A stretch of DNA of 64,000 nucleotides from Ignavibacteria bacterium (GTDB lineage Bacteria > Elusimicrobiota > Endomicrobiia > PHAN01), in NCBI GenBank assembly GCA_041694835.1, contig JBGFRZ010000082.1, positions 52,266 through 116,265 of the forward strand, read 5' to 3'. Of the stretch, positions 1 to 43,799 are shown piece after piece; the first letter of the stretch is position 1; every line of letters starts with the position of its first letter. Below the pieces are notes generated by a model. The model worked only from the letters and a program-made list of their open reading frames with translations. It had not been told where the DNA came from and ran no database searches. The translations under genes and the position numbers were made by a program.

Positions 1-1511
1 ACAATGCCTTTTTCAATTTTTTCCTTGTTCGCTTCGTAAATTTTGTTCCATTTATCTTTTGTGCCGTAATACCTCTGCGAAATCGACTGCAACGTTTCTC
101 CGGGAAGCACCTTATGCGTTCTTGCGGCAGGTGGCGGCGGTGTTCTTTCAGGACGTCTGCGCATCTCCTCGGAAATAACAGACGGACTGGAGACCTCTAC
201 ATTTAAAATATCGGTAATGTTTTTTTCGGGAGTTTTTGTAAATTCCGCCGGTGAGGGCGGGGTTGATATTAAAACCGGAATAATCTCTTTTTTCTGGACA
301 GGCGCATAAGTGGATATTTCAGCGGTAAACTCCGTTAGAAGTAAGTCACCAGAGGCGGCCGGCCCCGATGAATATAGGGGAACTTCTAACGGGATAAATT
401 GTTTTTCTTGCACGAGAGCGGGTTCAGGCGGTGGTATCGGCAACTTTCTGTGTTCTTCGAATTTGACGGGATGGAATGTTTCCCGCGTTTTAACGACATC
501 TTTTTTTCTTTCACCGAAATAAACCGAAATACCGAACATATGACTCCCCGACATTTCAGACATACCCCCTAAAGGATACAACATCGCATAGTCGAAAGAA
601 ATATTTTTAATGTTCATTCCGAGACCCGCTGTAATCCTCCTGTAATTATTGCTGCCAAAATTGAACCCTGTCCTCAAAACAAGTACTTCGTTTAACAATT
701 TCTTTTCGACTCCCAAATTGACCGTCTGCCGTTCGGACGATATTACATAATCGGCGGCAAGCAGAAAATCTTTTTCCTCGTATGACGCTCCGAATACATT
801 TCCGGCCGGTCTCTTGTATTTTTTATTATCTTCGCTTTCAATCTCCGTGTGATAACCAAATTTTATATTGCCGAACCGCAAAATAACTCCCAATGGAAAA
901 GACATGAAATCTCTGTTATACGGTTCTCTAAATACGGGGTCGACTTTTTGATAATTATCTCGTATGGGAATTCTTATCAAATAATTTTTGACGCCAGCGC
1001 CGACGAAAACAAAATTATGCGGGTTCCACGAAAAGTTGAGCGCATAAATTTCTTCAGAATAATAATCACCGAGGGAAAGACCGCTGTAGCCTGCGCCAAA
1101 ACCGAAATTTCTAAAAGGTATTCCGAAAGAAAAAGAAGCGTTTGATATATTGCTCCTGTCATCTAGACCAATATGCAGTTTGCTGTAGCCAAACGAGAGA
1201 GTCGTATTTCTAAGAGACGAAACGCTCGATGGATTAAAAAACACAACTCCCGCATCCTCCGTCATAGAAGCCGCTGCCATACCGAGAGAACTTATGCGAG
1301 CGAAAGCAGGTTTTTCCTCGAAAGCCGCATAAAGGCAGACAATAGGCAATAGGCAGTGGGCAATAGTAAAATATAGGCAATAGGCAATAGGCAGTAGGCG
1401 GTAGTAGTTGGCGGTTGGCGATTTGTGATATGAATAACGAGCCACAAGCCACGAGCCACGAGCCACCAATAAACTTTTAAACTCTTGAACTATCCTCTGT
1501 CTTTTATTCAT
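1..1511 (-). CDS. FadL/OmpP1/PorV-like outer-membrane beta-barrel with C-terminal LysM domain (3' end runs off window start; start codon uncertain: ATG at 1511 or internal ATG ~1285/1264)
   Basis: Hand translation of the minus strand is open from 1511 to position 1. The N-terminal motif ARISSLGMAAAS..EDAGVVFFNPSSV matches the FadL-family signature SxGLGxA..ADDA...NPA. The same motif occurs in the ORF at 15423-17057. The C-terminus HKVLPGETLQSISQRYYGTKDKWNKIYEANKEKI is a typical LysM. It is not in the ORF track because there is no stop codon inside the window. Confidence 0.5.
   Translation of the reverse strand, partial: MNKRQRIVQEFKSLLVARGSWLVARYSYHKSPTANYYRLLPIAYCLYFTIAHCLLPIVCLYAAFEEKPAFARISSLGMAAASMTEDAGVVFFNPSSVSSLRNTTLSFGYSKLHIGLDDRSNISNASFSFGIPFRNFGFGAGYSGLSLGDYYSEEIYALNFSWNPHNFVFVGAGVKNYLIRIPIRDNYQKVDPVFREPYNRDFMSFPLGVILRFGNIKFGYHTEIESEDNKKYKRPAGNVFGASYEEKDFLLAADYVISSERQTVNLGVEKKLLNEVLVLRTGFNFGSNNYRRITAGLGMNIKNISFDYAMLYPLGGMSEMSGSHMFGISVYFGERKKDVVKTRETFHPVKFEEHRKLPIPPPEPALVQEKQFIPLEVPLYSSGPAASGDLLLTEFTAEISTYAPVQKKEIIPVLISTPPSPAEFTKTPEKNITDILNVEVSSPSVISEEMRRRPERTPPPPAARTHKVLPGETLQSISQRYYGTKDKWNKIYEANKEKIEKGI
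1290..1470. repeat. imperfect 7-8 bp periodic low-complexity repeat (ataggca / ggcaatag units, then agccacg units) overlapping the predicted signal-peptide coding region of the FadL/LysM gene
   Basis: The DNA shows aggcaataggcaataggcagtgggcaatag...ggcaataggcaataggcagtaggcggtag and gagccacaagccacgagccacgagccacc. On the minus strand this reads as a hydrophobic LLPIAYCLYFTIAHCLLPIVCLYAAF stretch. Confidence 0.6.
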
Positions 1512-1529: not shown

Positions 1530-4500
1530 TTATCTCGCCACCACGACTGTGCCGTTTTTTATTTTATCTCCGACTTTCAACTGATAGATGTAAACTCCCG
1601 TCGGAAGCGCTCCGCCCGATTGTTCTTTGCCATTCCAAACCACCCATAAATCGCTCTTTTTCTCCATCTCTGCCACTTTATAGCCGCTCAAATCAAAAAT
1701 CTCACCCGTGACACTTTCGGAGAAAGGATTTTCGAAAGTTACATTAAACTCATCGTTTATCCCATCGCCGTTGGGTGTGAAAACTTTCGGCCATGCGTTT
1801 AAAATTTTAAACTCCACCGCTCTTTGAAGAGAGCGAACCCTGAACTCCCCCGAGTATCTCGCATCTGCAATTAAATATGCCCCCAAATATCTCCCGCCAA
1901 GATTGACCCACTCCACTCCGTTAAACCAGAAGACAGCATAACTGGCGACTTCTGAAGGTGTCTTTGAAACTGCGGGCGACGAAGCAGTGAGGTTTTCAAG
2001 TTGAAATTTAAGAGTCAGAGGTTTTTTGAATCCAGTTTTTATCAATGCCCCTTCCCTATCCATTATTTCAACCATATACGAGAGTTTCGTCTTCTGGTCG
2101 TCGGGTGGGTTTTCTTTCTTTGTAATTTTAACGGAATAATCCGGTCTTAAAATTTCGGGTTCAGCAACAATTTGGAATTTGCCGTTTTCCGAATGATGAA
2201 TGTTTTGATTTGGTTCGCCTGCCACCAATACTGCCGATGGCTCGCCAAGGACTCCAAGTGTATTTATTGCTCTAACCATATAATAGATATTAACGTCAGA
2301 GACCAAAGCGAGTGTCAATGTGCTAGAAGATGCGGGGACAAATGCCACATGGTTAGAAGTAAACAAGTCGTCAAATCTATGGGCCACGTAAACCCTGAAG
2401 CCTGCGAGGTTTCCTGGAGAGGAACCATCTGTATTTTTAATGGGCGCAGTCCACGAAAGGACTATATCTTTTGTATTTGGGATATCAAACTTAAAGTTCG
2501 TTGGAGGCAGGGGTCTTGCTGAAGGGTTTGTATAAAAACTCCAGTCAGTTGTTGGCGTAGAGCGACTCGTTTTATCTACTGCATAAACCCGCCAGTAATA
2601 GGTGCTGTCGACCAAGAGGGTCTTATCGAGGGGGACTTGATACGACAAAGAAGCAATATTTGAAACAACTTTTCTTGAAGAAAAATCGGGCGATGTCGAA
2701 TGCCATAACTCATAAACCACAAAGTCTTCAGGGTCTGGGTCAAAAGAAGATGACCACGAGAAATTAGGCATAAGCGTTTCTATAATGGCCCCGTTGGCTG
2801 GGGAAAGCAGAGAAAACGCCGAAGGATTTTCTTCAATTGAATTTACCTTGAAACTTAAAACACTTGACCATCTCTGATTGCCCCATATATCGCAAGCAAC
2901 TGCCCTCCACCAATAAGTTCCGTTCTCTTTAAGTTCCAGGGTTATATATGAAGTGGTTGTAATTCCGACTGAAGACACAAAGACATTGAAATTTTCATAA
3001 GACGAATAATGGACATCATACCAGAATGTATCCGATTCGGGGTCTGAACTTGGTGACCATATTAAAGTTGGCGTTCTAGTCGAAATTATCCCTGATGGAC
3101 TAACAGGAACAAAAGGGTTTGGTGGCAGATTGACTGCAATAAAACTTCGCGATAGTGTATCTGTTGAACCCGTAAGTGTTGAATGCGCCGTAACATACCA
3201 GTAATATGTCGTGTTGTTGGACAGGTCACTTTGAAATGTATATGAGGTAATATATATCGGAGAAATCTGAGTTTTAATGGCAAAAAGCGAATTCGTGGAA
3301 TAAGTCAGAGTGTAATAATACACATAATCATAAGGGTCAGGGTCTGTTGTTTCCTGCCACAAAAGAGTGGGCTTGAGATAACTATAAAAAGAGCCATCCA
3401 GTGGCGAAAGCAGAGAAAAAGCTTTTGGATTTTCTGAAGTTGCATCAACTATAAAAAACCAGGTTGAGGAATGCGTCATGGCATTAAAGGAATCAATAGC
3501 AATAACATACCACCAATATGTAGTGTTTTCATTTAGCGATGTAGTGACCGAAAAAGGTGGGGAACTAATTCCGACTGAAGAGACAAAAATAGAGAAATTT
3601 GAGACGGAAGAATAAAAGATGGAGTAGGTGACGGTGTCCCCATCCGGATCGATTGCACTTTGCCAACTTAAAGACAGCGTCTGGGTTCTAATTATTCCCG
3701 AAGATGCGAGCAAATTGAAACTGCCCGGCGGAAAATTTACCGCTTTTACCGTAAAACTTGAAATTTCCGATTGCGTCGTCAGGTTATCCGGAGACGACCT
3801 TGCGACAACTCTCCACCAATACACCGCATCTTCCTGTAAATCTATCAATTGATAGTAGGTGGTGAGTATATCGAAAATGACTGGCGGGGCTGGAGTGGCT
3901 GTGGTTGAAGAGTAAGAAATTCCGTAATATACAGTATTGCCGGGGTCTAAATCAATAGCGATGCTCCATCGAAGTGTCGGTGATGATGTAAAAATCATTG
4001 TGCCGCCCGTGGGCCAGAGAAGTGAAAATGGCTGAGGCGGTTCATTCACAGTATTTAATCTAAAACTGCCGGTTGACGACGAAACGGTTTCGCGGCCCGT
4101 CGTGTCTCTTGCATGAACCTTCCAGAAATACCTGGCGTTTTCAGTTAAATTCCACCACGGCGACCAGGATAACTGATTAATGCCCGACACTCTGGTAGAA
4201 ACATTTGATTCAAAACTGATAGATGTAGAAATATAAACATTATAAACAACAAAATCTGCAGGGTCAGGGTCGGAAGAAGCGTTCCACCAAAGCGTCGGCT
4301 GAAGGGTACCGGTTTCTATGGTGTCATTTATCGGCTGAATAAGCGAAAAAGCCGTCGGCGATTCGCTCGTCGCATTTACAACAAACTGAGGGGTGCCGGT
4401 TACTCCCAATGAAAGTAGTCCTTCTGAATCCCTCGCATAGACACGCCAGTAGTATGTCGTGTTTTCGTTTAGCGCGGGGGTTGTCCAATTTGTCTGGGTT

Positions 4501-5168
4501 ATATTCTCCACAACGCTTTTTGGCGAAAAATTGCTTGCGGTTGAATACCAAAGGATGTAACTCGTTATACTGTCGCCGTAGATATTGTCTGTGCCGACAG
4601 GAAATCCACCGGCATTTGTCACATCGCCCCATGCCAGAAAGACCAATGAAGAAAAAACAACTGTTGTCGGGGTTCCTGTGTAGTTGTAGCCACTTACATT
4701 CCCAGGTGAGTTGTTCTGAGTCGCCGACTGGGGCTCAGGACTTGAAGTGTCAAGCAGCGACCAGTTGATGTTGTCCGTCGAAGATTTTATCGCAAAAAAA
4801 TATGTTATATTATTTACAAGAGATGAAACGACTCTCATCTCCGAGTTGCTGGAAGAAGTTGAAGTCGAAAATTTTATCCTGTAGGGGTAAGAAATCGATG
4901 TGGAGTTGTTTGTCCAGTCGGCTTCTGCGACTATTACCCGGTAACTCGAAACTCTTACCTCGTACCATTGAGGCGCTCCTTCCGGCCCACCTGGAGCTGT
5001 CCATTGAAGGGTTATGTGTCTGAAGCCGCTTGATCTTATTGAGAGATCGGTGACCTGATTTGGAACAGCGTTCAGGGTCGTTAATCCAAATAAAAAAAGT
5101 ATCGTCGGCCAAAAAAAACGAACGGGGCGAAACTTATCGATATCCGACAGTTTTGTCCGATGTTTCAT
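1530..5168 (-). CDS. large secreted surface protein (1212 aa): signal peptide, >=8 Fn3/Ig-like ~100-aa repeats, C-terminal T9SS type-B sorting domain (gliding-motility-associated CTD)
   Basis: Recurring repeat motifs PTLxWxxxxDPDxDxxxYxxxxSTxxxF appear throughout. The last ~85 aa, FTPNGDGINDEFNVTF...WNGK...GVYIYQLKVGDKIKNGTVVVAR, match the TIGR04131-type FxPNGDGxND CTD. The N-terminus has a hydrophobic signal-like segment. Confidence 0.6.
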   Translation of the reverse strand: MKHRTKLSDIDKFRPVRFFWPTILFLFGLTTLNAVPNQVTDLSIRSSGFRHITLQWTAPGGPEGAPQWYEVRVSSYRVIVAEADWTNNSTSISYPYRIKFSTSTSSSNSEMRVVSSLVNNITYFFAIKSSTDNINWSLLDTSSPEPQSATQNNSPGNVSGYNYTGTPTTVVFSSLVFLAWGDVTNAGGFPVGTDNIYGDSITSYILWYSTASNFSPKSVVENITQTNWTTPALNENTTYYWRVYARDSEGLLSLGVTGTPQFVVNATSESPTAFSLIQPINDTIETGTLQPTLWWNASSDPDPADFVVYNVYISTSISFESNVSTRVSGINQLSWSPWWNLTENARYFWKVHARDTTGRETVSSSTGSFRLNTVNEPPQPFSLLWPTGGTMIFTSSPTLRWSIAIDLDPGNTVYYGISYSSTTATPAPPVIFDILTTYYQLIDLQEDAVYWWRVVARSSPDNLTTQSEISSFTVKAVNFPPGSFNLLASSGIIRTQTLSLSWQSAIDPDGDTVTYSIFYSSVSNFSIFVSSVGISSPPFSVTTSLNENTTYWWYVIAIDSFNAMTHSSTWFFIVDATSENPKAFSLLSPLDGSFYSYLKPTLLWQETTDPDPYDYVYYYTLTYSTNSLFAIKTQISPIYITSYTFQSDLSNNTTYYWYVTAHSTLTGSTDTLSRSFIAVNLPPNPFVPVSPSGIISTRTPTLIWSPSSDPESDTFWYDVHYSSYENFNVFVSSVGITTTSYITLELKENGTYWWRAVACDIWGNQRWSSVLSFKVNSIEENPSAFSLLSPANGAIIETLMPNFSWSSSFDPDPEDFVVYELWHSTSPDFSSRKVVSNIASLSYQVPLDKTLLVDSTYYWRVYAVDKTSRSTPTTDWSFYTNPSARPLPPTNFKFDIPNTKDIVLSWTAPIKNTDGSSPGNLAGFRVYVAHRFDDLFTSNHVAFVPASSSTLTLALVSDVNIYYMVRAINTLGVLGEPSAVLVAGEPNQNIHHSENGKFQIVAEPEILRPDYSVKITKKENPPDDQKTKLSYMVEIMDREGALIKTGFKKPLTLKFQLENLTASSPAVSKTPSEVASYAVFWFNGVEWVNLGGRYLGAYLIADARYSGEFRVRSLQRAVEFKILNAWPKVFTPNGDGINDEFNVTFENPFSESVTGEIFDLSGYKVAEMEKKSDLWVVWNGKEQSGGALPTGVYIYQLKVGDKIKNGTVVVAR

Positions 5169-5716
5169 ATCTTTATATGTGTGTAATTAAGCCATCTTAT
5201 GATTTTTGAGAATACGCTCTTTTTCTCATTCCTCACAATCTTGAGTGATGTGAGTTTAAGGTTTAATCTTCTTATCTCGTCCTCATACTGCTTGAGAGTA
5301 TTTTTATGGCCGCTTATTGCGACCGATTGAGTATCGATAATATCTTCTTTTTTGTGCAGCACAAGCAAGAAATCTTTTCGCCAGTTTGCGAATTCTTTCG
5401 CCTGAACGGAAATCTTCGCCAACTCGTTTTTCAGAGTTTCTATCTCGTCGCGAAGTTTTTCGTTTTCTTCCCTTATGCTGTTTTTCTCATCCTCAAGAAG
5501 TTGCATTTTTTGATTGCCATCCTCCGCCATCCGAGATAAAATCTCATTCTTTTTGTTTAAATCAGATCTCAGTCTTGTGATTTCGCTCATATACAGATTG
5601 TTTTTCTCTCTGAACAAAGATGATTCTGGCATTTCACCACGACAACCGAATTCATCCTCGAGGCGCTCTATCTTTTTAAGAAGCTCTGAAACTTTAGTTG
5701 CTCTTTGGCTTGCCAT
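5165..5716 (-). CDS. coiled-coil protein (183 aa), E/K/L-rich heptads
   Basis: Track ORF. It overlaps the downstream gene by 4 bp (ATGA) and the upstream gene by ~23 bp, suggesting translational coupling within the operon. Confidence 0.4.
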   Translation of the reverse strand: MASQRATKVSELLKKIERLEDEFGCRGEMPESSLFREKNNLYMSEITRLRSDLNKKNEILSRMAEDGNQKMQLLEDEKNSIREENEKLRDEIETLKNELAKISVQAKEFANWRKDFLLVLHKKEDIIDTQSVAISGHKNTLKQYEDEIRRLNLKLTSLKIVRNEKKSVFSKIIRWLNYTHIKI

Positions 5717-8700
5717 CGTTTCTCCTTATCTTGATTATGGGTTCGTTCAGGTTTTCCCAGAACTTCTTAAACGACGATGCCTTCTTTCCTTCTGAAAACT
5801 CTCCCTCGCCCTCTTTATCGACAAATTTCCTAATCGCCTTCTTGAGTTCATTTATTTCCTCGTCCTTAATTGAGATTTCAATCTCACGGGCTTTGTATTT
5901 TTTTGTTATTTCATCTATAATTTCTTTCAGCTCAAATACATCCGAGGTTGCGATTTTGGTCGCTGAATTTTTCAGATTTTCATAAGCGTCCGATATCTCT
6001 CTCTTCTGAGATTCCATCTCCTCAATTTTTCCGCGATACTCGCTATTTAAAAGCGATATATTTTTCTCGAGGTTCTCCGCTCTCGCTTTTAGTACCGCTC
6101 TTTCCTCTTCTTTCGCCTTTAACTCGGAATCTTTCAAAGACAGTTCTTCCTGTGCGGTCTTTATTGAGTGCTCCATTTCGGCTCTTATTTCACTTAACTC
6201 TGAATTCAGGGCGGATTTCATCTGCGATTTTTCTTTTAAAAGGGTTTCAATCTGATTTCTGTATTTCTCCTCCATCTCCCTTTGAATTTCCAATTCCTTC
6301 CGCCTGTAGTCGAGATGAAGCCTCTCGATTTCTCCCTCTTTCGAAATGATATCGGCTTTAAGTCTGTCTTTTTCATCGTACCACTTTGTGAGCATCTGCT
6401 CATAATTTTTTTTAGACTCTTCGACCTCTTTCCTAAGACGTTCGAACTCAAAGGCATTTTCCATCTCCACTTCCCTTCTCACTTCAAGCTCCATCTGCTT
6501 CCATTCGGCATTCATATTTCTTATCTGGTTTTCTTTTAGAACAATATCCTGTTTGATGTTGTTTGCTTCTTTTTGAGCCGATGAAATCTCCTCTCTGAGT
6601 TTAACGGTTTCTATCTGATAGTTCTTCTTCTCTAATTCAAGAGAAGTGATTTTTCTTTCAATCTCGCCTTTCTCAATCCTAGAATTATTCAGAATCTCCT
6701 GCTCTTTCATCAACTGCTCGGCGAGCTTTCTGTTTAACTCTTCCTTCTGTCTGGCGAATTCATTTTGGACTTCCCTGATTCTTGCGTCGGCATCTTTTTC
6801 TCTGAGTAAAATCGCGTGATTCAGATCGGACACCGCTTTTCTTGCATGTTCAAGCTCAAAACGAATGTGCTCCGCCTCTTTTGAGAGCGCATTACAGCGC
6901 GACTCTTCCTTTGAAAAACTCTCTATCAGACGATGAATTTCCCCGTTAAGCTCCGATATTTTGCTTTCATATCCGCCGATAGTTTTTGATTTTTCCCTCT
7001 CAAATTCTTTTGCAAGGTTTGCGACTTCTCTTTCCGCATCTCGCTGAATATTTACAACATCATTCCTGAGCGACGTGATTTTGGCCTCACTTTCGCTCGT
7101 CAACCTTGATATAGTCTCCTGATAATTCTTTTCAATTTCCTTTATCCTGACTTCGGCCTCCCTCTCTTTTAGCTCGATAGCGTGATTGCTCTCCGCTATC
7201 TTATGACTTGCGTTATCGAGCTCAAAAGTTATCGATGCGATTTTCTGCGAGTATGAATCGTTTTTAGATGATAACTCGACTATATGACTTCTAGAGTCGG
7301 TCAGATCTTTCTCCATGATTTTTTTGTCCTGTTCCAACCGCAAACTCCTCATTTCAAACTCTTTCATTCGCGCCGCGTACTGTTGCATCTGATTTTCATA
7401 TAAAGAGTCACTTCTCTGTGCGTCCTGTCTCAGGATAGAAATTTTCTGCTCATACTCCGCTTCTTTCTGTTCAAGCCTCTGCAACCATTGGGCTTCGGCG
7501 ATTCCGAGTTGAGCTTCCTTTGAGCTAAGTTTTGAGTCGTATTCGGCCGAAAGGGTTCTCAATTTTTCTTCGTAATGCCTTTTAATGTTTTCGAGTTCGG
7601 TTTCCTTCAAACGGACGGCGCTATTAAAATCTCTTTCGTGATCGGCGAAATATACCTTCAGAGATTTTATCTCCTCTTCCTTCTTTTGTATCTCAAAACC
7701 AGATTCCTGGATTTTTTTGTTAAGCTGTTCCTTGTAAAATAATATCTCCCTGAGAAGTTTGTCCTGTTCTGTTTTAGTCTTCCCCTGGAAAAGCGCAAAC
7801 TGCGTCTTCAGGAGAAAATACTCCTTCTCTTTCGCTTCGGCACATTTGACGAGTTCGTTTTTCTCGGTTCTCATCTTTTCAATAAGATGGACGAGCTTCT
7901 CGCCCTTTTCTTTCTGCTCCCTTAATTGAACCGAAGACATTGCAATCTGCGCCTTTATCGCAAGAAACTCTCTATCTCTTTCTTCAAGTTGTTTCAGGAG
8001 AATATTTTTTTCTTCCTGATTTTTTGCGACAGATTCCTTCAAGTCCCTCAAAGCGGCGTCTCTGTCGGATTCCATCCTTGAAATCCTGTTTTCAAAGTCG
8101 TCTTTTTGTTCAAGCAGATTTTTCTCGAATGCAAGCTTCAGTTTCGAGAGCTCTTCTTCTTTATTTCTCAGAGATGTGGACCATCCAAGTTTTTCTTCGT
8201 GCCATTTTCTCTCGAGATCTTTTATCTTCAGGGAAAACTGTTCTTCAATCTCTGTCTCCTGGAAGTCCCTCTGCTGCATCTGTGTCTTTAACGTCTGAAC
8301 CCATGTTTCTCTCTCTTGAGAGAGTCTTTCCTCAAGTTCTTTTATCTTCGATTCGGCTTTCGCTTTCGCTTCCTCTATTTCCTGCTCTCTTTTTTCCCGC
8401 CTGAGGCGTTCTTGAATGTCTTTTATAGATTCCTCGACTTTGGAGGCCATCGCTTCTTCTTCCTTAGACTTCATCATCTGTAAGAGAAGTTTTTCCCTTT
8501 CCTGCTGAAGTTGATTCTGAAGTTCTATTATCTGCTGTTGAAGTTTGGTGGCGGACGCGTCGGAGGCGGGGGTGTCCAAGATGGGCAGATGCTGTGCGGG
8601 CGGCTTCAGAGGCAGCCCGGTCCTTTTGGGGAGTACGGGCGAGCCCGAAGATGGTTTCGGGGGCAGCGGTAGATTTGGTTTTCCTCCTGCGTGTTGACCT

Positions 8701-8741
8701 TTCGATGGCAAAGGCGGAAGTTTGGGTTTTTTATCTTCCAT
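5694..8741 (-). CDS. giant coiled-coil protein (1015 aa) with proline-rich N-terminus (PKLPPLPSKG...PLPPKPSSG)
   Basis: Track ORF. The protein is an almost continuous E/K/L/Q heptad coiled coil. It overlaps the upstream 1616-aa gene by 11 bp. Confidence 0.5.
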   Translation of the reverse strand: MEDKKPKLPPLPSKGQHAGGKPNLPLPPKPSSGSPVLPKRTGLPLKPPAQHLPILDTPASDASATKLQQQIIELQNQLQQEREKLLLQMMKSKEEEAMASKVEESIKDIQERLRREKREQEIEEAKAKAESKIKELEERLSQERETWVQTLKTQMQQRDFQETEIEEQFSLKIKDLERKWHEEKLGWSTSLRNKEEELSKLKLAFEKNLLEQKDDFENRISRMESDRDAALRDLKESVAKNQEEKNILLKQLEERDREFLAIKAQIAMSSVQLREQKEKGEKLVHLIEKMRTEKNELVKCAEAKEKEYFLLKTQFALFQGKTKTEQDKLLREILFYKEQLNKKIQESGFEIQKKEEEIKSLKVYFADHERDFNSAVRLKETELENIKRHYEEKLRTLSAEYDSKLSSKEAQLGIAEAQWLQRLEQKEAEYEQKISILRQDAQRSDSLYENQMQQYAARMKEFEMRSLRLEQDKKIMEKDLTDSRSHIVELSSKNDSYSQKIASITFELDNASHKIAESNHAIELKEREAEVRIKEIEKNYQETISRLTSESEAKITSLRNDVVNIQRDAEREVANLAKEFEREKSKTIGGYESKISELNGEIHRLIESFSKEESRCNALSKEAEHIRFELEHARKAVSDLNHAILLREKDADARIREVQNEFARQKEELNRKLAEQLMKEQEILNNSRIEKGEIERKITSLELEKKNYQIETVKLREEISSAQKEANNIKQDIVLKENQIRNMNAEWKQMELEVRREVEMENAFEFERLRKEVEESKKNYEQMLTKWYDEKDRLKADIISKEGEIERLHLDYRRKELEIQREMEEKYRNQIETLLKEKSQMKSALNSELSEIRAEMEHSIKTAQEELSLKDSELKAKEEERAVLKARAENLEKNISLLNSEYRGKIEEMESQKREISDAYENLKNSATKIATSDVFELKEIIDEITKKYKAREIEISIKDEEINELKKAIRKFVDKEGEGEFSEGKKASSFKKFWENLNEPIIKIRRNDGKPKSN

Positions 8742-11700
8742 TTTTCCCTCCTGATTTGTTATTTATCTTGTTTGTTAATTCCTTCTCAAAGCTAATCAGA
8801 TTCTCGTTTTTAGGTTCTATGGATATCGCCTTTTTTATCGCCATAAGAGCGTCATCCAGTTTGTCTGTGTTATAAAAGCATAAGGACATATACTGCTGTG
8901 CTTCCGCGCTGGATGGATTATTCCGAGTGAACTCCCTCAGTATTTCCAAAGACTCGGAGTAACTGCCTTGTTCGCAAAGTTCTACGGCTCTTTTCAAAAG
9001 CATCGGTCTGACTTCTTTTGGTGTCTGTCCATAAGAAACCATCTTTCCCATAAAGTCGTCGGCGAATTTCTTAAGATTTTCCCTCATCTCCCGTCGACGA
9101 ATGCTTTCTGCCATTATTTCTTTTGTAGTCATTTGCATACCGGCCTCGAGCACATCGAGTTGATTCATCTTAAGTTCAAGCAGTTTTGTGAATCTATCTT
9201 TTTCCGACATTATAGAGTTTTCAAGTTCTGATATTTCCCGAACCATAGAGATAAGTTCGGTGTTTTTATCCTCATAAAGCTTTAACTGAGCGGATATCTC
9301 CGGAGAATCCTTCATATAAGAGGCTCCCGCATCCGCAAGCTCTTTTCTTAAATTCTCTATGGCTTGAGATGAGAGTTTATGCTGCGACTTATTCTTATCG
9401 ATTGTCTCTTCCAGAACTCCTTTTAGTTCATCAATATATTTTTGGAGCTCTTCTCCGCGCTTTTTTGTTTCATTTTGCAGACGCTCATTTCTCAACTCAA
9501 GTCGTTTTGAGAGGGTGGTTATCTTTTCTTCTTCCATATAGATTTTGTTTTTAGACTCTGACAAATAATCGTTGTATTTCCTGAGAAGTTCCGTCAAATC
9601 TTTTTCGAGCTTTTTCAAGAGGTTCTTGCTTTTTTTCTCATGCCTCAATCGCGCAGTCTCGAACTCGGACTTCGAAAGTGCCACTTTGAGTTTTCTGGAT
9701 TCTATTTCCTTTTCAATCTCTCCGATTATCTTTGCCGAAGAGTTCTCGCTTTCTTTCAACTTACTTTCCCAAAGATTCACTTCGGCGAGGAGCGTTTCTC
9801 TCTCTTTAAGAAGCTTCGCTTCCTGAAGGACCCATTCGGATTCGAGGCGATTTTTTTCATCGTCATATTTTGCCTCTAGTTCTCTTTGCGTTTTTATTTT
9901 CCCGGAAATCGTTTCCCCGGTTTCCTTCTTTAACTTTTCCATTTCAGACGACAACTTTTCCATCTCTCGCTCGATCTTTTCTTTCTCGGCGAGGTGTTCT
10001 TTCGTTATTCGTTGCTCTTCGTCGGTCACATAGGATTCCCATGTTGTTATTTTGTTTCCGAGCTCTTTCATCTCTTCTTCTTTTTGCGATTTTAAATTGC
10101 TCCAGTAATCGCCTTGCTCTCTGATAGTCTTTTGAAGAGTTGATATCTGCTCTTCAAGTCTTTTATTCGTATCAGTCCAGGTTGTCTCTTTATTCTTTAG
10201 TTCATTTTTTGTCTGTTCAAGAGATGCCTGTGATTTATTGATGAACGCATTCAGCTCGCTCGTCTTGGAGCAAAGCGCGGTTTTGCCCGCATTCTGAACT
10301 TCCAAAAAGTTGTTTTGGAGCATCGTCAGTTCTTCGGCCAGAACTTTTCTCTCGTTTTCATAATTTTCGTTTTGCTTTTTTTCCTCCTCGTGCCATGATT
10401 TTTCTCTTAAAGCCATCTGCGTCTTCAGGACATAAAGTTGCCTGTCCAGAATCCTTACTTCATCGCGATTCGTTCCGACTAGAGCTTTTAGCTTATGTTC
10501 TAACTCATCCCTCTTCCTATCAAGCGAATGTTTCTCGGCGGCATAATTCTGTGATGAGTTTTCAAACTTTGTTTTCATTTCATCTTCCAATACTTTTAGA
10601 TTCTGCTGTCCAACTTTCAGTTTTTCTTCAACTTCGGATAACTCTTGCTCCTGCTTGATTTTTATGGCTTTCATCTGGTTTTCAAGATTTTCTTTCCTTT
10701 TTTCAATTCTTTTGACGAACTGCTCATGCGATTGAAAATATGAATCTCTATTTTTTGTGTAATTATCCTCCTGTTCCTTCAATTTCGCATTTAGTTCCTG
10801 AATCTGCTGCTGCCTTGTGGCAACCATCCCCGGATGTTTTTCTTCCAACTGCGCAAGTTCCATTTCATTCGATGTAATTTTGGAAATCAGCAGTTCTTTG
10901 ACTTTATTAAACTCGCTTTCCATATGATTCAACCTGGCTTTATACTCCTGTTCAAACCTCAAGTGGTCCGACTTAAGCTTTTCAATTTCACGCTTTTTCT
11001 CCGCCAGCAACTCCGCATGGCGGGATTTCATCTCTTCCGATTCATTTTCAATCTTTTCTATTTCCTCATTTATGAGCTTTTTTTCATTTTCATTTTCTAA
11101 CTCAAGAATTTTTATTTCTTTTTCATATTTGTGAATGTTGGTTTCACGAGATGCGTTTAAAAAAGTTATCTTGTTATCGAACTCTATTAAGATATCAGCA
11201 TGTTTTTTTCTTGTTTCATCAAGTTTTTTTGAAGATTCTTCGAGTTTTTTTCTGACCAACTCAAGCTCCGCGCTTATTATGCTCTCCTTTTCTTCTATCT
11301 CATATTTATTTGCCGAAATTAAATCATTCACTTTTTTACTTATCGCTTGTATATGTCTTTCGGACTCCGAAATTTCACTTTCGCATTTTTCTTTAAAAAA
11401 ATTAAACCCGACTTTCGTCCTTTCAAGCGACTCTATCGCTATCTTCTTCTTGCCTTCAAGTTCAAAGCGGGTGGCGTCCAAATTTTTTTGTAACACCGCT
11501 GTCTTTTCCAAAAGAACTTTTTCTAACTGATTGTTCTCATCGTTTTTCGCGCTTACGGTCTCATCAAATCTCTTTTGTTCTGAAATCACCACACTATTCA
11601 ATTCCTCTATTTTAGCCTCAATACTTCCTTTTTCTTCTTTTAGTTTTACATTAAAACTTTCAAGCGCAAGAGAATGATTTTTCTTTTCATCTTCCATCTT

Positions 11701-13581
11701 TTGCATCAAAGACTGATGGACATTTTCAAGTTCCTTCATGTTTTTTGAATGTTCTTTTTCAAGCGATATTTTTTGAGAGTCAATCTCGTCTATGTCGGCC
11801 TTTATTGAATCGATTTCGGCCGAGAGTTTATCGACTGACTGATGGTATCTACTTTCAAGCATATTTTCCTGATGGGCAAAACGTTGCTTCAAACTTAAAT
11901 AATCTCTTTCCTTTTCTGCCATCTTCTGCTTAAAATCCATCTCAAGACGCGCTTTTTTACTTTCAGCGACCTTCAGCTTTTCTTTATAAGGTTCAACTTC
12001 CACAAAAAGTTTCTTTTTAGCGTTCTCAAAAGACCTGGTGCTTTCCAAAAGTTCCGCTTCCACTGAATTTTTTGCGGCTTCAACCTGGGATTTCTTTTGA
12101 GAAAGAAGTGAAGAGTACTCCGTCTTTATTTTCGAAAAATCTTCCTGGAACTTTTGATATTTATCCTCGATGAGTTTTTTCTCCTCGGAAAGAATTTCAA
12201 TTTGATGTTTATGTTGAAGATTCTTCTGTTCCTGGTTCGATTGCCAATCGTTTTTGAACTTTTCCATCTCTTCGTACTTTCCGGAGAGTTCACTTTGATA
12301 TTCTATTTTCTGGTTCAAAACTTCTTTTTCAAGATCAGTACATCTCAAAGAGATTCTCTTTTTTTCATTTTCAATATTTGTTTTGTATTTTTCTATTTCT
12401 GCGTTTTTCTCCCTTATCTTTATTTGAGCCTGGATTTTAATGTCTTCTATATCCTGATCCGCGACTCTTATCATATTCTCCCATTCGGATTTTTCCTGCT
12501 CATATTTCTGATGAAGCTCCTTGAGCTGTTTTTCAGCCAGAGATTTTGCCTCTTTGAACTCGTTGAAACGTTTTTCGCGAGCGGAACTTTCCTGCGTTTC
12601 CTGAAGCATCATGTCAATTTTTAGTTTATTGAAAGCATCTTCCCTCTCTTTCAATAGTTTCTCGTATTTCTCCTTTTCGGAAAGCGACTCCCTTTCCATC
12701 TCACTCATCTGAGCCACTAACTTTTCTTTTAAATCCTTAAGCAATATCTTTTTCGCATTCAGTTCCTGCTCATATATTATCTGACGCTGTTTCAAAGCCG
12801 AGCTGAATGCAAGCAATCCCTCTTTTTTATCGTTATAAATTTTCTGGAAGTTTGCTCTCATTTCGGAAAGATTTTTTTCAACACCATTCAACTGATTATT
12901 GTAATTGCCTTCTAATTCTTTTTTCTCCCGATGAAATTTTTCCTCTTCCTGCCGGGACTGGTTGACTCTGAGGGATATCTGTGCTTTTAATGCCACGATT
13001 TCCTCTTCCCTGCCTTTCAGTCTTGTTACAAATTCCCCTATTTCCTGCTGTGCTTTTTTCTCGAAGGCAAGAAGCTGACTTTCTATCTCTCTTAATTCCT
13101 GAGTGGATGAAATTATCTCTTTTTCATCTTCGGCTTTTTTTTCGTTTTCCCTGGTTTGCAAATTTACTTTTGTTTCGTCTATCTCGGTTATGATAGCTCT
13201 GATTTTTTGACCCCACTCTTTATCCTCTTCTTCTATCTTGCGCTCAACCCTTTGCAGTTCGTCATTCCATTTTTTTCTAAGCGAATTTATCGAGTCCTGA
13301 TGAAGTTGCATGTTGTTTGAAAGTTCGAGTTCAACAAGTTCAAGATGGATGGAAAGTTTTATTTTTTCATCTTCTTTCTCTTTTTCTTTCTTCCTGTAAT
13401 TTTCCCGCTCAACTTCGAGCATCTTTTCTATGTTTTCAAGTTGCTCACGCGCCGTTTTTTTTATGCTTTGTAAATCATGGCTGGCGGTAAGCTCTATCTT
13501 TTTCTCGTCGCACTCAATATCCGATGTCGCTTTTTTTTCGGCGACTGGTTCCTCTTTGTGTTTGATTAGCCACTTCCACAT
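8731..13581 (-). CDS. giant coiled-coil protein (1616 aa) with C-terminal TPR-like repeats
   Basis: Track ORF. It reads as ~1500 aa of SMC/myosin-tail-like coiled coil followed by LEILREFTRNNPSSAEAQQYMSLCFYNTDKLDDALMAIKKAISIEPKN (TPR). Confidence 0.5.
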   Translation of the reverse strand: MWKWLIKHKEEPVAEKKATSDIECDEKKIELTASHDLQSIKKTAREQLENIEKMLEVERENYRKKEKEKEDEKIKLSIHLELVELELSNNMQLHQDSINSLRKKWNDELQRVERKIEEEDKEWGQKIRAIITEIDETKVNLQTRENEKKAEDEKEIISSTQELREIESQLLAFEKKAQQEIGEFVTRLKGREEEIVALKAQISLRVNQSRQEEEKFHREKKELEGNYNNQLNGVEKNLSEMRANFQKIYNDKKEGLLAFSSALKQRQIIYEQELNAKKILLKDLKEKLVAQMSEMERESLSEKEKYEKLLKEREDAFNKLKIDMMLQETQESSAREKRFNEFKEAKSLAEKQLKELHQKYEQEKSEWENMIRVADQDIEDIKIQAQIKIREKNAEIEKYKTNIENEKKRISLRCTDLEKEVLNQKIEYQSELSGKYEEMEKFKNDWQSNQEQKNLQHKHQIEILSEEKKLIEDKYQKFQEDFSKIKTEYSSLLSQKKSQVEAAKNSVEAELLESTRSFENAKKKLFVEVEPYKEKLKVAESKKARLEMDFKQKMAEKERDYLSLKQRFAHQENMLESRYHQSVDKLSAEIDSIKADIDEIDSQKISLEKEHSKNMKELENVHQSLMQKMEDEKKNHSLALESFNVKLKEEKGSIEAKIEELNSVVISEQKRFDETVSAKNDENNQLEKVLLEKTAVLQKNLDATRFELEGKKKIAIESLERTKVGFNFFKEKCESEISESERHIQAISKKVNDLISANKYEIEEKESIISAELELVRKKLEESSKKLDETRKKHADILIEFDNKITFLNASRETNIHKYEKEIKILELENENEKKLINEEIEKIENESEEMKSRHAELLAEKKREIEKLKSDHLRFEQEYKARLNHMESEFNKVKELLISKITSNEMELAQLEEKHPGMVATRQQQIQELNAKLKEQEDNYTKNRDSYFQSHEQFVKRIEKRKENLENQMKAIKIKQEQELSEVEEKLKVGQQNLKVLEDEMKTKFENSSQNYAAEKHSLDRKRDELEHKLKALVGTNRDEVRILDRQLYVLKTQMALREKSWHEEEKKQNENYENERKVLAEELTMLQNNFLEVQNAGKTALCSKTSELNAFINKSQASLEQTKNELKNKETTWTDTNKRLEEQISTLQKTIREQGDYWSNLKSQKEEEMKELGNKITTWESYVTDEEQRITKEHLAEKEKIEREMEKLSSEMEKLKKETGETISGKIKTQRELEAKYDDEKNRLESEWVLQEAKLLKERETLLAEVNLWESKLKESENSSAKIIGEIEKEIESRKLKVALSKSEFETARLRHEKKSKNLLKKLEKDLTELLRKYNDYLSESKNKIYMEEEKITTLSKRLELRNERLQNETKKRGEELQKYIDELKGVLEETIDKNKSQHKLSSQAIENLRKELADAGASYMKDSPEISAQLKLYEDKNTELISMVREISELENSIMSEKDRFTKLLELKMNQLDVLEAGMQMTTKEIMAESIRRREMRENLKKFADDFMGKMVSYGQTPKEVRPMLLKRAVELCEQGSYSESLEILREFTRNNPSSAEAQQYMSLCFYNTDKLDDALMAIKKAISIEPKNENLISFEKELTNKINNKSGGKNGR

Positions 13582-13596: not shown

Positions 13597-15411
13597 TTAT
13601 TTTCTTGATGCCTCGAGTTTTATCTGTTCAATAAAGTTTGACAGCTCCGTGTCATTTGGGTTTATGTTTAACACCGCTTCATAATTTGCAATCGCTTCGT
13701 CATATCTTCCGAGAGCATAATATGAAGCGGCAATATAACTGTAGGCGTCGGTCAAAGTGTTGTCGATTGAAAGGACGTACTCAAGATAGCTTATGGCATC
13801 CTCATAGTTTCCCGCTTCATAACTGGAGAGTCCTGCCTGATAGTAATCCGCAGCGTCACCTTCCGAAGGAGCGGCTTCTTCGTCAACAACCTCTTCACCC
13901 TCAAGAGCGCTGCTTTTCGGCTTTTCTCTTATAAAGATTTTACCGTCATCTTCAAGTTTTCTTATGACATCCATTATTTTCTTTCTTCCTTCTTCTGTCT
14001 GTAACGGCGTTACGGATTGGGTGTACTGCATTTCTTCTTGAATAAGTTGGACCGCGTTAGACGACATGTTGGCAAAAAACTTATTTACCACATCCTGAGG
14101 CACTCCTTTGAGTGAGCGGGCAAGAAGTTCCGAATTTTTCAAATCTGGAAAGTTAAGTATTGTCTGCATCGTCTGATCCGTGAAGTTCTTAATGTCATCA
14201 AACTTCAATATAAACTTTCTGACCCTGTCGTAGAGTTCCGGTTTTTCGTTCTGTAGATAATCCAGTATGTTGTCCCTTGTTACGTTGTCAACCTGATCAA
14301 GCACTTTCAAAAGATGCTCTATGCCGCCTATTAGGAAGTCTATCTTTTCTTTTATGTCGTCGTCTATCTTCATTACCTTATCCCTCGTCATCTGTCTTAT
14401 GGTCGCCATCTCTATGGCCACCTGCGACTGAACCTGCGCCGAAAGGCTGAGAAGTATCTCTTTGACATGCTCGGGTTTAAGATAACTTATTACGAGAGCT
14501 ATTATTCTTGCGCTTTCTTTCCTTATTAAATATATAAGTCTTTTAAGATTTTCGTCATCTACATAGTGAAACGGTTTGTACTTTTTTTTCTCCTCTTCCA
14601 GCGCTTCAAGCTCAGCCGCAGAAAGAGCGCCGCCTCCGCCTCCTCCTTCACCGCCTTCTGGCTCCCCCTCGGGGTTTTCGAATTTTGAATCCACGGTAAC
14701 TTCTGTTCCGCCCTTTTCCCTCATCGTTTTTACATATGCACGGAAAAAGCCAGCAAGAGGACCGAAAAGAAAAAATAAAAGAAGAAATGCTATAACAAGA
14801 GGTATCAAAACAAGCGGCTTCAGCAGCTCTTCAAAAAATCCCGTCGTGAATTTTGTTTTCTTAAAATCTATCCGGTCACCGCGCTTTTGATCTATTCTGA
14901 GAGCGGAAGTAATAGCATCTTTTACGGCTTCAAGTTTCGACTCGGGAACTTTTTCATCGTGCAAAACAGTCACTATCTGTTTTTTCAGAGCAATTTTGAC
15001 CTCGACAGTTATTTTTTCCTGCTGGCCGGCCTCTTCTTTCGATTCGCCGACTTGATCCGCTTGAGAAACCGCTCTGGGCGCCGGAACACCCGGCAGCAGA
15101 TACTCCACCTCGCCTATCGGCTTCTTTTTTTCGGCCTTTCTTTCCCTGACGAAGGTTTTTCTGGTTATCGTATCAAGACCGAATTCGACATCGACTATGG
15201 CTATCGCTTTATCCGGTCCAAGTATCCTGTCAAGGATGTCTTTCTGAACGTACTCCGTCTTTTCTTTTTCGTACTTGAGTTCATGTTCTATCAGTGAGAT
15301 TTCCGCAGACTGCGGGGTCATCTGTCCATAAAGATAAACAAAAGAAGAAAGAGCCAGTAAAAGTGCCACCGCGCTTTGTTTCAAATTTTTAAGCTGTTTT
15401 AATTTTTTCAT
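13597..15411 (-). CDS. membrane protein fusing FliF/YscJ-like periplasmic ring-building motif, TM helix, FliG-like middle+C-terminal domains and C-terminal TPR repeats (604 aa)
   Basis: N-terminal signal/TM anchor MKKLKQLKNLKQSAVALLLALSSF. The periplasmic segments AIAIVDVEFGLDTITRKTFVRERK and ITVEVKIALKKQIVTVLHDEKVPESKLEAVKDAITSALRIDQKRGDRIDF resemble FliF ring-building regions (compare SARVHLAMPKPSLFVREQK and VTVTLEPG...VVHLVSSAVAGL). A second TM helix is PLVLIPLVIAFLLLFFLFGPLAGFF, followed by a Gly-rich linker. Then ESARIIALVISYLKPEHVKEILLSLSAQVQSQVAIEMATI ... DIKNFTDQTMQTILNFPDLKNSELLARSLKGVPQDVVNKFFANMSSNAVQLIQEEMQY..EEGRKKIMDVIRKLEDDGKIFI follows the FliG/MgtE-N fold pattern. TPR repeats lie at the C-terminus. 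Confidence 0.5.
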   Translation of the reverse strand: MKKLKQLKNLKQSAVALLLALSSFVYLYGQMTPQSAEISLIEHELKYEKEKTEYVQKDILDRILGPDKAIAIVDVEFGLDTITRKTFVRERKAEKKKPIGEVEYLLPGVPAPRAVSQADQVGESKEEAGQQEKITVEVKIALKKQIVTVLHDEKVPESKLEAVKDAITSALRIDQKRGDRIDFKKTKFTTGFFEELLKPLVLIPLVIAFLLLFFLFGPLAGFFRAYVKTMREKGGTEVTVDSKFENPEGEPEGGEGGGGGGALSAAELEALEEEKKKYKPFHYVDDENLKRLIYLIRKESARIIALVISYLKPEHVKEILLSLSAQVQSQVAIEMATIRQMTRDKVMKIDDDIKEKIDFLIGGIEHLLKVLDQVDNVTRDNILDYLQNEKPELYDRVRKFILKFDDIKNFTDQTMQTILNFPDLKNSELLARSLKGVPQDVVNKFFANMSSNAVQLIQEEMQYTQSVTPLQTEEGRKKIMDVIRKLEDDGKIFIREKPKSSALEGEEVVDEEAAPSEGDAADYYQAGLSSYEAGNYEDAISYLEYVLSIDNTLTDAYSYIAASYYALGRYDEAIANYEAVLNINPNDTELSNFIEQIKLEASRK

Positions 15412-17093: not shown

Positions 17094-17462
17094 TTAATGT
17101 ATGACTCCAATTTTTCTTAAAGCCACTATCTTCCCGCCATCGACGGAAACCACACAGATATATCCGCCCTTGGCGACGTAATGACCGTTTTCGTCGCGAC
17201 CGTCCCACAGGATTGTATCTCCAAAAAATTCGAGATGCTTGACGGGGCGGCCAAAAAGATCGAAAATTTTTACCGCAATTCCAACGTCGGTCTGATTTGA
17301 TTTTTTTACAAGGATGCTTGTGGAAGTTTTTCTCGAATCGAACGGATTGGGATAGTTTGAAAGAAATATGTCAGAAGATGATGCGACGGATGCCGTCAAC
17401 AAAAGAATTGATGAGGCGAAAGGGATAAGTAAAAGATAATTTAAAAAGTTGATGTGCTTCAT
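17094..17462 (-). CDS. small secreted protein consisting of a signal peptide plus T9SS type-A C-terminal sorting domain (FlgD-Ig-like CTD) only (122 aa)
   Basis: LSNYPNPFDS...VKIFDLFGRPV..L....ILWDGRDENGHYVAKGGYICVV...KIVALRKIGVIH matches the TIGR04183/PF13860 CTD pattern. It is the first gene of the operon. Confidence 0.5.
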   Translation of the reverse strand: MKHINFLNYLLLIPFASSILLLTASVASSSDIFLSNYPNPFDSRKTSTSILVKKSNQTDVGIAVKIFDLFGRPVKHLEFFGDTILWDGRDENGHYVAKGGYICVVSVDGGKIVALRKIGVIH

Positions 17463-29816: not shown

Positions 29817-29833
29817 AATAAACCCTCTTTCCT

Positions 29834-31959: not shown

Positions 31960-31998
31960 ATATCAACTCTTCGTCCAATGTAACCTGGGGCACTGCAC

Positions 31999-37125: not shown

Positions 37126-37133
37126 GCATTCCT

Positions 37134-43787: not shown

Positions 43788-43799
43788 AAAAGGAGAATT

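Follow-up and report, generated by a model that had tools for sequence, protein, structure and literature searches.

A riboswitch-led Elusimicrobiota operon that may combine flagellar-rotor-like proteins with T9SS-like outer-membrane anchors

What would hold a large, predicted surface protein at the outer membrane of a bacterium whose phylum lies outside the reported range of type IX secretion systems (T9SS), and why would the same bacterium encode a sorting domain of that kind as a protein of its own? Both questions are raised by a 64-kb stretch of contig JBGFRZ010000082.1 from a member of the Elusimicrobiota (hereafter the window), where one string of genes encodes two proteins with T9SS-like C-terminal domains (CTDs). 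The T9SS is treated as confined to the Fibrobacteres-Chlorobi-Bacteroidetes (FCB) group or the Bacteroidetes (PMC12398890, PMC4793230). Our analysis suggests, at a confidence that we place midway between doubt and belief, that the locus is an Elusimicrobiota operon combining flagellar-rotor-like parts with T9SS-like outer-membrane anchors. We found no description of such an operon in the literature on Elusimicrobia, T9SS/PorV, FliF/FliG/MotAB and c-di-GMP-I riboswitches.

The locus consists of eight genes on the minus strand, g1 to g8, which run from 17462 to past position 1, where the window start cuts g8. Successive genes are separated by gaps of 36, 11 and 15 nt, then overlap by 11, 23 and 4 nt, and end with a gap of 18 nt. 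Tandem class I cyclic di-GMP (c-di-GMP-I) aptamers on the same strand are followed by a 122-aa mini-protein with a stand-alone CTD (g1), a PorV/PorQ-like barrel-TPR protein (g2), a FliF/FliG-TPR protein (g3), three coiled-coil/TPR proteins (g4-g6), a 1212-aa Fn3-repeat protein with a type-B CTD (g7, seventh of the eight) and a second barrel (g8). An earlier note on this DNA had put the 122-aa protein at the head of the operon, and it is the first of these tightly packed, co-directional genes. That note described g1 and g7 rightly and overlooked the riboswitches, the FliF/FliG gene, the coiled-coil genes, the second barrel and the taxonomy. Nearly all open reading frames (ORFs) of at least 150 aa in the window were scanned with hidden Markov models (HMMs); those left out of the Pfam scan lie at 31688-32254, 56310-57221, 60255-61706 and 61934-63097. 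Exact-sequence look-ups of g3, g7 and P0239 matched no record.

The rotor-like part of the operon is g3 (13597..15411; 604 aa), in which the FliG middle and C-terminal domains of the flagellar motor are present. It scores 86 bits to FliG_C (PF01706), 50 bits to FliG_M (PF14841) and 23.6 bits to YscJ_FliF_C (PF08345; cut-off 23.8), and its family profile retrieves T. maritima FliG MC (1lkv) from the PDB with an E-value of 7e-60. An AlphaFold2 model (mean predicted local distance difference test score, pLDDT, of 82, with domains above 90) orders a first transmembrane (TM) helix, a domain of alpha/long-beta/loop/long-beta/alpha/beta topology, a second TM helix, FliG-MC and a TPR region; a TM segment falls at residues 191-227. 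Foldseek aligns this model with FliG (E 5e-10) and aligns the domain between the two helices, predicted to be periplasmic, with the FliF S-ring RBM3/beta-collar of 8z5v, 8z4g and 6sd1 (E 3e-5 to 1e-4, TM-score 0.5-0.58). No YscJ or RBM1-2 match is found in g3, and the RBM3/beta-collar-like domain is the only part of FliF present. Taken together, the HMM, profile and Foldseek matches indicate that g3 is a natural FliF(RBM3)-FliG(MC)-TPR fusion. Ring formation is documented for FliF-FliG fusions made by engineering (PMC10941966, PMC11481574).

The three genes that follow g3 encode highly charged proteins (41-47% charged residues) in which no hydrophobic segment was found and for which the Pfam and TIGR scans returned only weak coiled-coil-family matches. 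By translation and composition, g4 (8731..13581; 1616 aa) is a K/E-rich coiled coil with a TPR-like C-terminus; 46% of its residues are charged, it lacks a signal peptide and TM segments, it matches TPR_16 weakly, and related loci carry orthologues of 1546-2103 aa at the corresponding place. The product of g5 (5694..8741; 1015 aa) has a Pro-rich N-terminus and a coiled coil and is orthologous to a coiled-coil protein that precedes FlbD, or is fused to it, in relatives (phmmer E 2.7e-25 against the coiled-coil-FlbD protein of locus L003). The last of the three, g6 (5165..5716; 183 aa), is a coiled-coil protein by its weak family matches.

For comparison we used the best 80 of 311 g3 relatives in GTDB species genomes, with counts limited to loci with enough flanking sequence. 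All named members of this set of 80 are Elusimicrobiota. Each taxon-named sequence among 108 full-length g3 homologues is assigned to Elusimicrobia/Endomicrobiales, a few being labelled just 'bacterium', and the g1 homologues with taxon-level names all carry the same assignment. Neighbour homology mapping shows that a core of aptamer, PorV-like barrel-TPR protein, FliF/FliG fusion and coiled-coil protein is conserved across the phylum. In 67 of 70 loci the gene next upstream of g3 encodes a PorV-like barrel, MotA is encoded downstream in 39 of 55, and a giant CTD protein of 2,300-2,800 aa stands just upstream in 24 of 52.

Two variants surround this core. The first (variant A), which is that of an Endomicrobiia-like clade including the window, adds the mini-CTD gene and an extra coiled-coil protein of about 1,600-2,100 aa and lacks a stator; the Fn3/CHU_C gene is found in the closest relatives only. 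The second (variant B), which is that of most of the phylum and of the complete genome CP096137, adds FlbD, MotA, MotB and a lipoprotein. Its MotA scores 215 bits to MotP/MotA models, and its MotB consists of MotB_plug and OmpA domains. This continuation of the operon through FlbD, MotA, MotB and the lipoprotein is seen at 12335-17000 of L003 and in about 39 other loci (for example L034, L058 and L016); FlbD is either a 74-aa protein or fused to the coiled-coil protein, as in L003, and the lipoprotein is conserved, about 240-280 aa long, and ends in DLFKGFGFGQ. Variant-B loci with inspected downstream genes carry the stator set, and no export, axial or other flagellar genes were recognised nearby.

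How is the operon controlled? A candidate promoter (17900..17934), read from its match to the consensus, places TTGACA at about 17934-17929 and an A/T-rich -10 element just upstream of the first aptamer; a consensus scan also finds a weaker promoter-like site overlapping it, at 17927-17900. Aptamer 1 (17765..17900) belongs to the c-di-GMP-I clan, scores 60 bits to Rfam RF03167 (gathering 59; E 1e-11) and 50.9 bits with a purpose-built covariance model, R1, and has an insertion of about 56 nt in its second hairpin. It carries GACGCAAAGCC, matching the canonical RF01051 consensus; a GGC-variant label was dropped, given the canonical A where the two Rfam consensus sequences differ. Between the aptamers lies an intrinsic terminator with a 12-bp stem and a T-run (17661..17688), the strongest terminator-like site within 18 kb and the putative expression platform of aptamer 1. 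In folding, a 12-bp antiterminator (AAAGAUAGGGGG/CCCCCUAUCUUU) that uses the 5' strand of the second hairpin of aptamer 1 reaches into the 5' arm of this terminator. Aptamer 2 (17471..17607; 45.2 bits to RF01051, gathering 35; 41.2 bits with R1) ends 8 nt before the start codon. In the minimum-free-energy fold GAUUGUC (17612-17606) pairs with GGCAAUU (17470-17464), which closes aptamer 2 and covers the spacer between the Shine-Dalgarno sequence and AUG. The alternative antiterminator/terminator pairing and the sequestration of the start region suggest that ligand favours termination at the first aptamer and start occlusion at the second, making both of them OFF switches. From these folds, binding of c-di-GMP would most likely switch the operon off.

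Both aptamers exceed the Rfam gathering scores of their clan (CL00126), and matches at this level are present in 11 of 11 loci tested. A strict regular expression for the aptamer core was replaced by the Rfam scans and our own covariance model; the expression misses most variant-B aptamers because these have GGCGC in place of GACGC. The R1 model yields 77 matches in 1.4 Mb, all on the operon strand and directly upstream of the first gene, and none elsewhere. With this model 68 of 78 sources are positive, and orthologous aptamers stand in 67 related loci. The ten negative sources comprise four loci truncated at the 5' side, one without the operon start and five genuine misses. Four AT-rich Endomicrobia loci (L009, L011, L012 and L014) show no aptamer match at E <= 0.01 in the sequence upstream of their mini-CTD genes, although the model does detect aptamers in the sisters L010 and L013; in the four, the aptamers have either diverged or been lost. 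Tandem aptamers of the c-di-GMP-I class have been described from other phyla (PMC12452182), and in scores and tandem layout the leader resembles known c-di-GMP-I (GEMM-I) riboswitches. It differs from them in the large second-hairpin insertions of both aptamers, in a mixed design that pairs aptamer 1 with a terminator and sets aptamer 2 against the start codon, and in a kind of operon not linked to this riboswitch before, within the literature searched.

A c-di-GMP signalling cluster lies on the minus strand at 36061-39893, 18-22 kb from the riboswitch operon. It encodes a GAF + HD_5 (HD-GYP-like) protein, a type II secretion/type IV pilus ATPase with a c-di-GMP-binding MshEN N-domain, and a GAF-GGDEF diguanylate cyclase. 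The presence of c-di-GMP enzymes and an MshEN ATPase inside the window is counted here in favour of the reading of the operon proposed below.

Is the locus a flagellar motor, or a rotary machine of another kind? Its likeness to a flagellar rotor and stator lies in the FliF RBM3/beta-collar-like domain of g3, held between two TM helices and joined to FliG MC, and in the FlbD, MotA and MotB genes of its relatives. In contrast to the flagellar proteins, g3 is a natural single chain that lacks FliF RBM1/2 and FliG_N and has gained a TPR tail, and it is accompanied by a PorV-like barrel and by CTD proteins. The loci inspected yielded no recognisable export gate, rod, hook, filament or FliM/N. Given these absences and a FliF that is only partial, the locus is not a flagellar motor.

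The GldLM/SprB system of the Bacteroidetes and the Agl-Glt system of Myxococcus, with its coiled-coil protein AglZ and its TPR proteins, are surface-adhesin gliding machineries. They share with the Elusimicrobiota loci an ion-motor homologue (here in the relatives), TPR proteins, giant coiled coils, outer-membrane barrels and adhesin-like proteins. They differ in that the present genes have no sequence homology to Gld or Glt, that the motor proteins are of the MotAB/FliG type rather than the GldLM or TolQR type, and that the Elusimicrobiota locus is not known to confer motility.

In a related alternative, the operon could encode a rotary, ion-driven machine in which MotAB turn the FliF-FliG ring to propel or tension CTD-anchored adhesins, for gliding-like movement or surface sensing, the stators of the window's lineage being encoded elsewhere. 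In most of the phylum FlbD, MotA and MotB are indeed encoded immediately behind the coiled-coil gene, L003 has FlbD fused to the coiled-coil protein, and a c-di-GMP OFF switch would suit a motility function. Against this stand the poorly conserved residues of the torque helix. At the positions of E. coli K264, R281, D288, D289 and R297, g3 has K, N, E, E and T; among 81 homologues the D288 equivalent is Glu in all 81 and is the sole conserved charge of the five, 73 have Gly in place of R281, and Thr or Ser stands where E. coli has R297. A six-frame HMM search finds neither MotA nor FlbD in the window, and none is found in any locus that bears a mini-CTD, so that stator genes are lacking from the window and from every variant-A locus. 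No track, rod or shaft spanning the outer membrane was identified. Rotation in this lineage is thus unsupported, and we regard the rotary machine as doubtful.

What, then, would such a ring be joined to at the cell surface? The larger of the two CTD proteins, g7 (1530..5168, ATG start), comprises a signal peptide, an Fn3 domain, seven Ig/Fn3-like repeats, a second Fn3 domain, a region of about 140 aa and a CHU_C CTD. The seven tandem repeats of about 100 aa (residues 193-881) emerge from a self-profile search, each with an independent E-value of 2e-18 or less, and every one ends in T-Y-[YW]-W-x-V; with the flanking Fn3-like domains at about 43-150 and at 888-979, the protein has nine Fn3/Ig-like domains. 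It scores 59 bits to fn3 (cut-off 25) and 62.9 bits to Ig_Rha78A_N (cut-off 27.4). The C-terminal 85 residues or so, KVFTPNGDGINDEF...VVWNGKEQSGGALPTGVYIYQLKVG, include the motif FTPNGDGIND; residues 1127-1201 score 45.1 bits to CHU_C (PF13585; cut-off 27), and TIGR04131 gives 34.6 bits, 0.4 under its cut-off of 35 (E 1.5e-8). The earlier note had read this gene as a 1212-aa multi-Fn3 protein with a type-B CTD, and both the C-terminus that it quoted and these scores, which are those of a T9SS type-B cargo protein, confirm it. Orthologues of g7 stand at the operon end in L001, L002, L004, L007 (an N-terminal fragment, placed where the locus ends), L008, L033 and L084.

Next to g7 lies g8 (3..1511, cut by the window start), which by its HMM matches encodes a barrel of the PorP/SprF family or the PorV superfamily with a C-terminal LysM domain. 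The partial protein scores 21.9 bits to PorP_SprF (PF11751; cut-off 22.3), covering profile positions 17-271 of 273, and 44.6 bits to PorV_fam. A homologue search with the partial protein returned four matches, one of which could be placed in context, in L084; there the pair recurs, with 1199 aa in the Fn3/CHU_C protein and 564 aa in the barrel-LysM protein encoded after it. The g7/g8 module is an accessory part of the operon and not its core.

Two heptamer tracts, of CCTATTG (about 8 imperfect copies, 1340-1404) and GGCTCGT (4.3 copies, 1437-1466), respectively, fall in the 5' coding region of g8, within its N-terminal, signal-peptide-like part; the L084 homologue is without the repeat. Since a change in the copy number of a 7-nt unit shifts the reading frame, phase variation of g8 is possible. 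The opa genes of Neisseria are an example of repeat-based phase variation.

A precedent for the pairing of g7 with g8 comes from the SprF-SprB complex of Flavobacterium johnsoniae and the PorP-PG1035-PorE complex of Porphyromonas gingivalis, in which type-B CTD proteins are bound to PorP/SprF-like barrels (PMC9143113). Here too, the gene for a protein whose CHU_C CTD bears FTPNGDGxND is followed directly by one for a PorP/SprF-like barrel; g7 shares with SprB its large size, its many repeats and a predicted surface location, and the LysM domain of g8 parallels the OmpA-like peptidoglycan tether of PorE. In contrast to PorP and PorE, the LysM domain is fused to the barrel rather than carried by a separate PorE, and by analogy g8 would merge the barrel role of PorP and the peptidoglycan-binding role of PorE in one chain. 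The locus differs further from both complexes in its phylum, in the absence of SprA, GldK/L/M/N and PorU nearby, in PorP_SprF and TIGR04131 scores that fall just below cut-off, and in the FliF/FliG-like and coiled-coil genes of the operon.

At the other end of the operon stands g1 (17094..17462), a hydrophobic leader (residues 4-29) followed by NYPNPFDSR...IFDLFGRPV...WDGRDENGHYVAKGGY...RKIGVIH, without any further domain. Of the HMMs, those of PorU and PorZ match it best, in their CTD segments (E about 1.4e-6). Its AlphaFold2 model (pLDDT 80) is a seven-stranded sandwich, and the best fold match in the PDB is PorZ (5m11; E 3.6e-3, 26% identity). Among 31 homologues, all 31 match the PorU CTD, 29 the PorZ CTD and 28 TIGR04183 (E <= 0.01, best 3.7e-7). 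The earlier note had described a signal peptide plus a type-A CTD. The leader and a CTD-like beta-sandwich without cargo are both there; the type-A assignment falls below threshold for the single sequence and finds support at the level of the family. The models that the note had named, TIGR04131, TIGR04183 and PF13860, thus do return CTD matches, for the type-A domain at family level.

The note had also thought a CTD without cargo odd. The cargo is indeed absent; the oddity is not one of this genome, since the mini-CTD family runs to more than 150 clusters, with lengths of 98-205 aa and PF13860 matches in nearly all. An alignment of 31 diverse members (34-61% identity) has 22 invariant columns with the motif NYPNPF.SR...W.G...GGY...KIGV.H and a variable N-terminal leader. 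The mini-CTD is thus a conserved protein family rather than a remnant. It is present in 15 of 69 loci, always between the riboswitch and g2, and overlaps g2 by 4 nt in five relatives, which suggests translational coupling. The giant upstream proteins end in the domain of g1, including the phylum-specific terminal RKIGVIH, and three loci (L005, L008 and L015) carry both, the giant gene before the riboswitch and the mini-CTD gene after it. JGI annotates homologues of g1 as FlgD; we ruled this label out on the Sec-type signal peptide, the C-terminal position of the domain in the giant proteins, the PorV-like neighbour and the absence of flagellar export genes.

That neighbour, g2 (15423..17057; 544 aa), encodes an outer-membrane barrel of the PorV/PorQ family (residues of about 50-330) with a C-terminal TPR region (TPR_2, 37 bits). 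It passes the broad subfamily model NF033709 (PorV_fam, 140.5 bits; cut-off 90) and no other model of this group, scoring 51 against a cut-off of 250 for the PorV equivalog, 53 against 220 for PorQ and 75.5 against 325 for PorV2. In the T9SS attachment complex PorU and PorZ keep their CTDs, which bind PorV and PorQ. The domain of g1 is nearest to these two CTDs by sequence and by fold, and g2 is a PorV/PorQ-family neighbour; by analogy, g1-g2 resembles PorU-PorV or PorZ-PorQ stripped of all but the CTD. Unlike its counterparts, g1 lacks any catalytic or carrier domain, g2 has a TPR extension and stays under the equivalog cut-offs, and the strictly conserved C-terminal RKIGVIH is particular to the CTDs of this phylum. 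Four features argue for a barrel-docking role: the giant proteins carry the domain at their C-terminus, g1 has a signal peptide, a barrel is encoded next to it, and the domain resembles the PorU and PorZ CTDs. The earlier idea of a decoy or adaptor can probably be narrowed to that of a ligand of the adjacent PorV-like barrel.

A third pair of barrel and CTD protein occurs in L001 (HGW-Elusimicrobia-1, the closest named relative), where 2593-5861, immediately upstream of the operon, encodes a PorV-family-like/TraF_2 barrel of 529 aa and then an M6 metalloprotease. The CTD of the metalloprotease passes TIGR04183 (23.8 against 23).

Do these parts belong to an ordinary T9SS? Were one encoded elsewhere in the genome, g7 would be a type-B substrate with a PorP-like partner, g2 a PorV/PorQ paralogue and g1 a decoy or regulator, and the FliF/FliG and coiled-coil genes would be mere operon mates. 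The CTD and barrel families do match T9SS models, and a type-B CTD adjoining a PorP-like gene is the classical arrangement (PMC9143113). Nevertheless, the homologues and related loci are from Elusimicrobiota, outside the FCB range (PMC12398890, PMC4793230), and the linkage of the barrel to FliF/FliG in 67 of 70 loci is too consistent for chance co-location. SprA/Sov, PorK/L/M/N (GldK/L/M/N) and PorU, the core genes that the earlier T9SS label for the locus would predict, went undetected in the ORFs scanned across the 64-kb window. In the related loci examined, neither Pfam, on those that were annotated, nor homology to the operon genes, on the others, led to a recognised T9SS core gene. Because the core machinery is absent from the window, the barrel g2 stays below the PorV and PorQ equivalog cut-offs and the phylum lies outside the range, the T9SS label does not hold. 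The locus is not a canonical T9SS; it reuses parts of the T9SS and of the flagellar motor. An ordinary T9SS encoded elsewhere is in our judgement unlikely.

The last alternative sees g1 as functionless, either what is left of a large CTD protein in decay or a relic of FlgD. It draws on giant proteins of other lineages, which end in this CTD at the corresponding position, and on the FlgD label of g1 homologues. Given the signal peptide of g1, the similar length and 22 invariant columns of its family, its coexistence with the giant gene in three loci, its fixed place before g2 with frequent 4-nt overlaps, and a ratio of nonsynonymous to synonymous substitution (dN/dS) of about 0.09-0.4 (0.09 against L001), with synonymous sites saturated, this alternative is very improbable. 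On this conservation and dN/dS, a pseudogene was rejected.

We therefore return to the reading of the operon as rotor-like parts combined with outer-membrane anchors, for which the following arrangement may be proposed. After Sec export, g7 would reach the cell surface and its CHU_C domain would dock on g8, a peptidoglycan-tethered barrel, mirroring the type-B CTD and PorP/SprF pairs of the Bacteroidetes. The product of g1, likewise exported by Sec, would be a dedicated small subunit whose PorU/PorZ-like CTD binds the neighbouring barrel g2 and occupies the site used in sister lineages by the same CTD of the 2,300-2,800-aa surface proteins; in that place it would act as a cap or adaptor, and the gene would not be a broken one. 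In the inner membrane g3 may oligomerise into an MS-ring-like ring, its FliG/TPR face engaging the cytoplasmic coiled-coil/TPR proteins and, in most other lineages, the co-encoded FlbD-MotA-MotB, while its periplasmic collar and the TPR and LysM domains of the barrels would bridge membranes and wall. Together these proteins would form an apparatus across the envelope that keeps CTD-anchored surface proteins in place and, where stators are present, moves them, the ring being perhaps driven by MotAB. Binding of c-di-GMP at the aptamers would shut the operon off. For this proposal in full, that is g1-g2 and g7-g8 docking, a g3 ring, a c-di-GMP OFF switch and no canonical T9SS, we see the chances as evenly balanced.

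Several observations weigh against the proposal. The ORFs scanned in the window include no translocon such as SprA through which CTD proteins could cross the outer membrane. The lack of stator genes and the poorly kept torque-helix charges described above also count here, and the mini-CTD and MotA never occur in the same locus. The g7/g8 module is confined to close relatives (4 of 48 loci, the window and L084). Taken alone, g1 falls below both type-A models (TIGR04183, 21.9 bits, cut-off 23; PF13860, 17.1 bits, cut-off 27), and with its homologues the FlgD models come close to the PorZ and PorU models in strength of match. A CTD profile search of 1.84 billion representatives found the FlgD_ig fold family in 192,664 of them at E <= 1e-3, often as an internal repeat. 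The fold is generic, the search gave no delimitation of the mini-CTD family, and a family so large and so often internal means that the fold alone is no proof of a sorting or anchoring role. Finally, g1-g2 binding, g7-g8 binding, the g3 ring, co-transcription of the eight genes and the polarity of the riboswitches are all inferred.

A further step would see the loci as an undescribed, envelope-spanning Elusimicrobiota nanomachine descended from rotor and stator parts of the flagellum, in which a single-chain FliF-FliG ring, with FlbD-MotAB in most lineages, and PorV/PorP barrels that hold CTD proteins are joined by a coiled-coil/TPR scaffold and shut off by c-di-GMP. This would be a third, independently evolved machine for moving or tensioning adhesins, gliding-like or surface-sensing, with g1 as a minimal barrel cap and with CTD/PorV sorting in the absence of a canonical T9SS. 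We offer it tentatively, as a possibility that falls short of probable. For the two proteins of the earlier note, the new elements in our judgement are the proposed CTD/barrel anchoring outside the FCB group and the CTD-only family.

Every part can be recognised as related to a component already known (CTD cargo, PorV/PorP barrels, FliF, FliG, MotAB, GEMM-I), and the combination is kept, in a phylum that is poorly cultured, by about 80 genomes at species level, these being the best 80 of the 311 relatives. If the reading is correct, surface anchoring of the CTD/PorV type extends outside the FCB group, possibly without SprA. A natural FliF-FliG fusion without a flagellum would bear on the evolution and reuse of rotor and stator modules, and a riboswitch would tie cytoplasmic c-di-GMP directly to the display of surface proteins. 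The mini-CTD would offer a simple handle on the recognition of CTDs by PorV-family barrels.

Elsewhere the window holds restriction-modification and metabolic genes and a chromosomal origin region at about 43400-51300, with a switch in coding strand and AT skew near 43.5-44.7 kb. The genes of the origin region are tRNA-Leu (43703-43788), yidC, jag, trmE, rsmA, dnaA (49836-51236), dnaN, gyrB and gyrA. Of three N6/N4 DNA methyltransferase genes (22470-23474, 29028-30706 and 55468-56484), one adjoins a BsaWI-like restriction endonuclease and one forms an insertion between gyrB and gyrA. In the intergenic region between a CoA-transferase gene and a carboxyl-transferase gene, 3.1 copies of a 14-nt unit, TTTTCTATCCCCTA, make up a near-perfect tandem repeat at 32002-32045.

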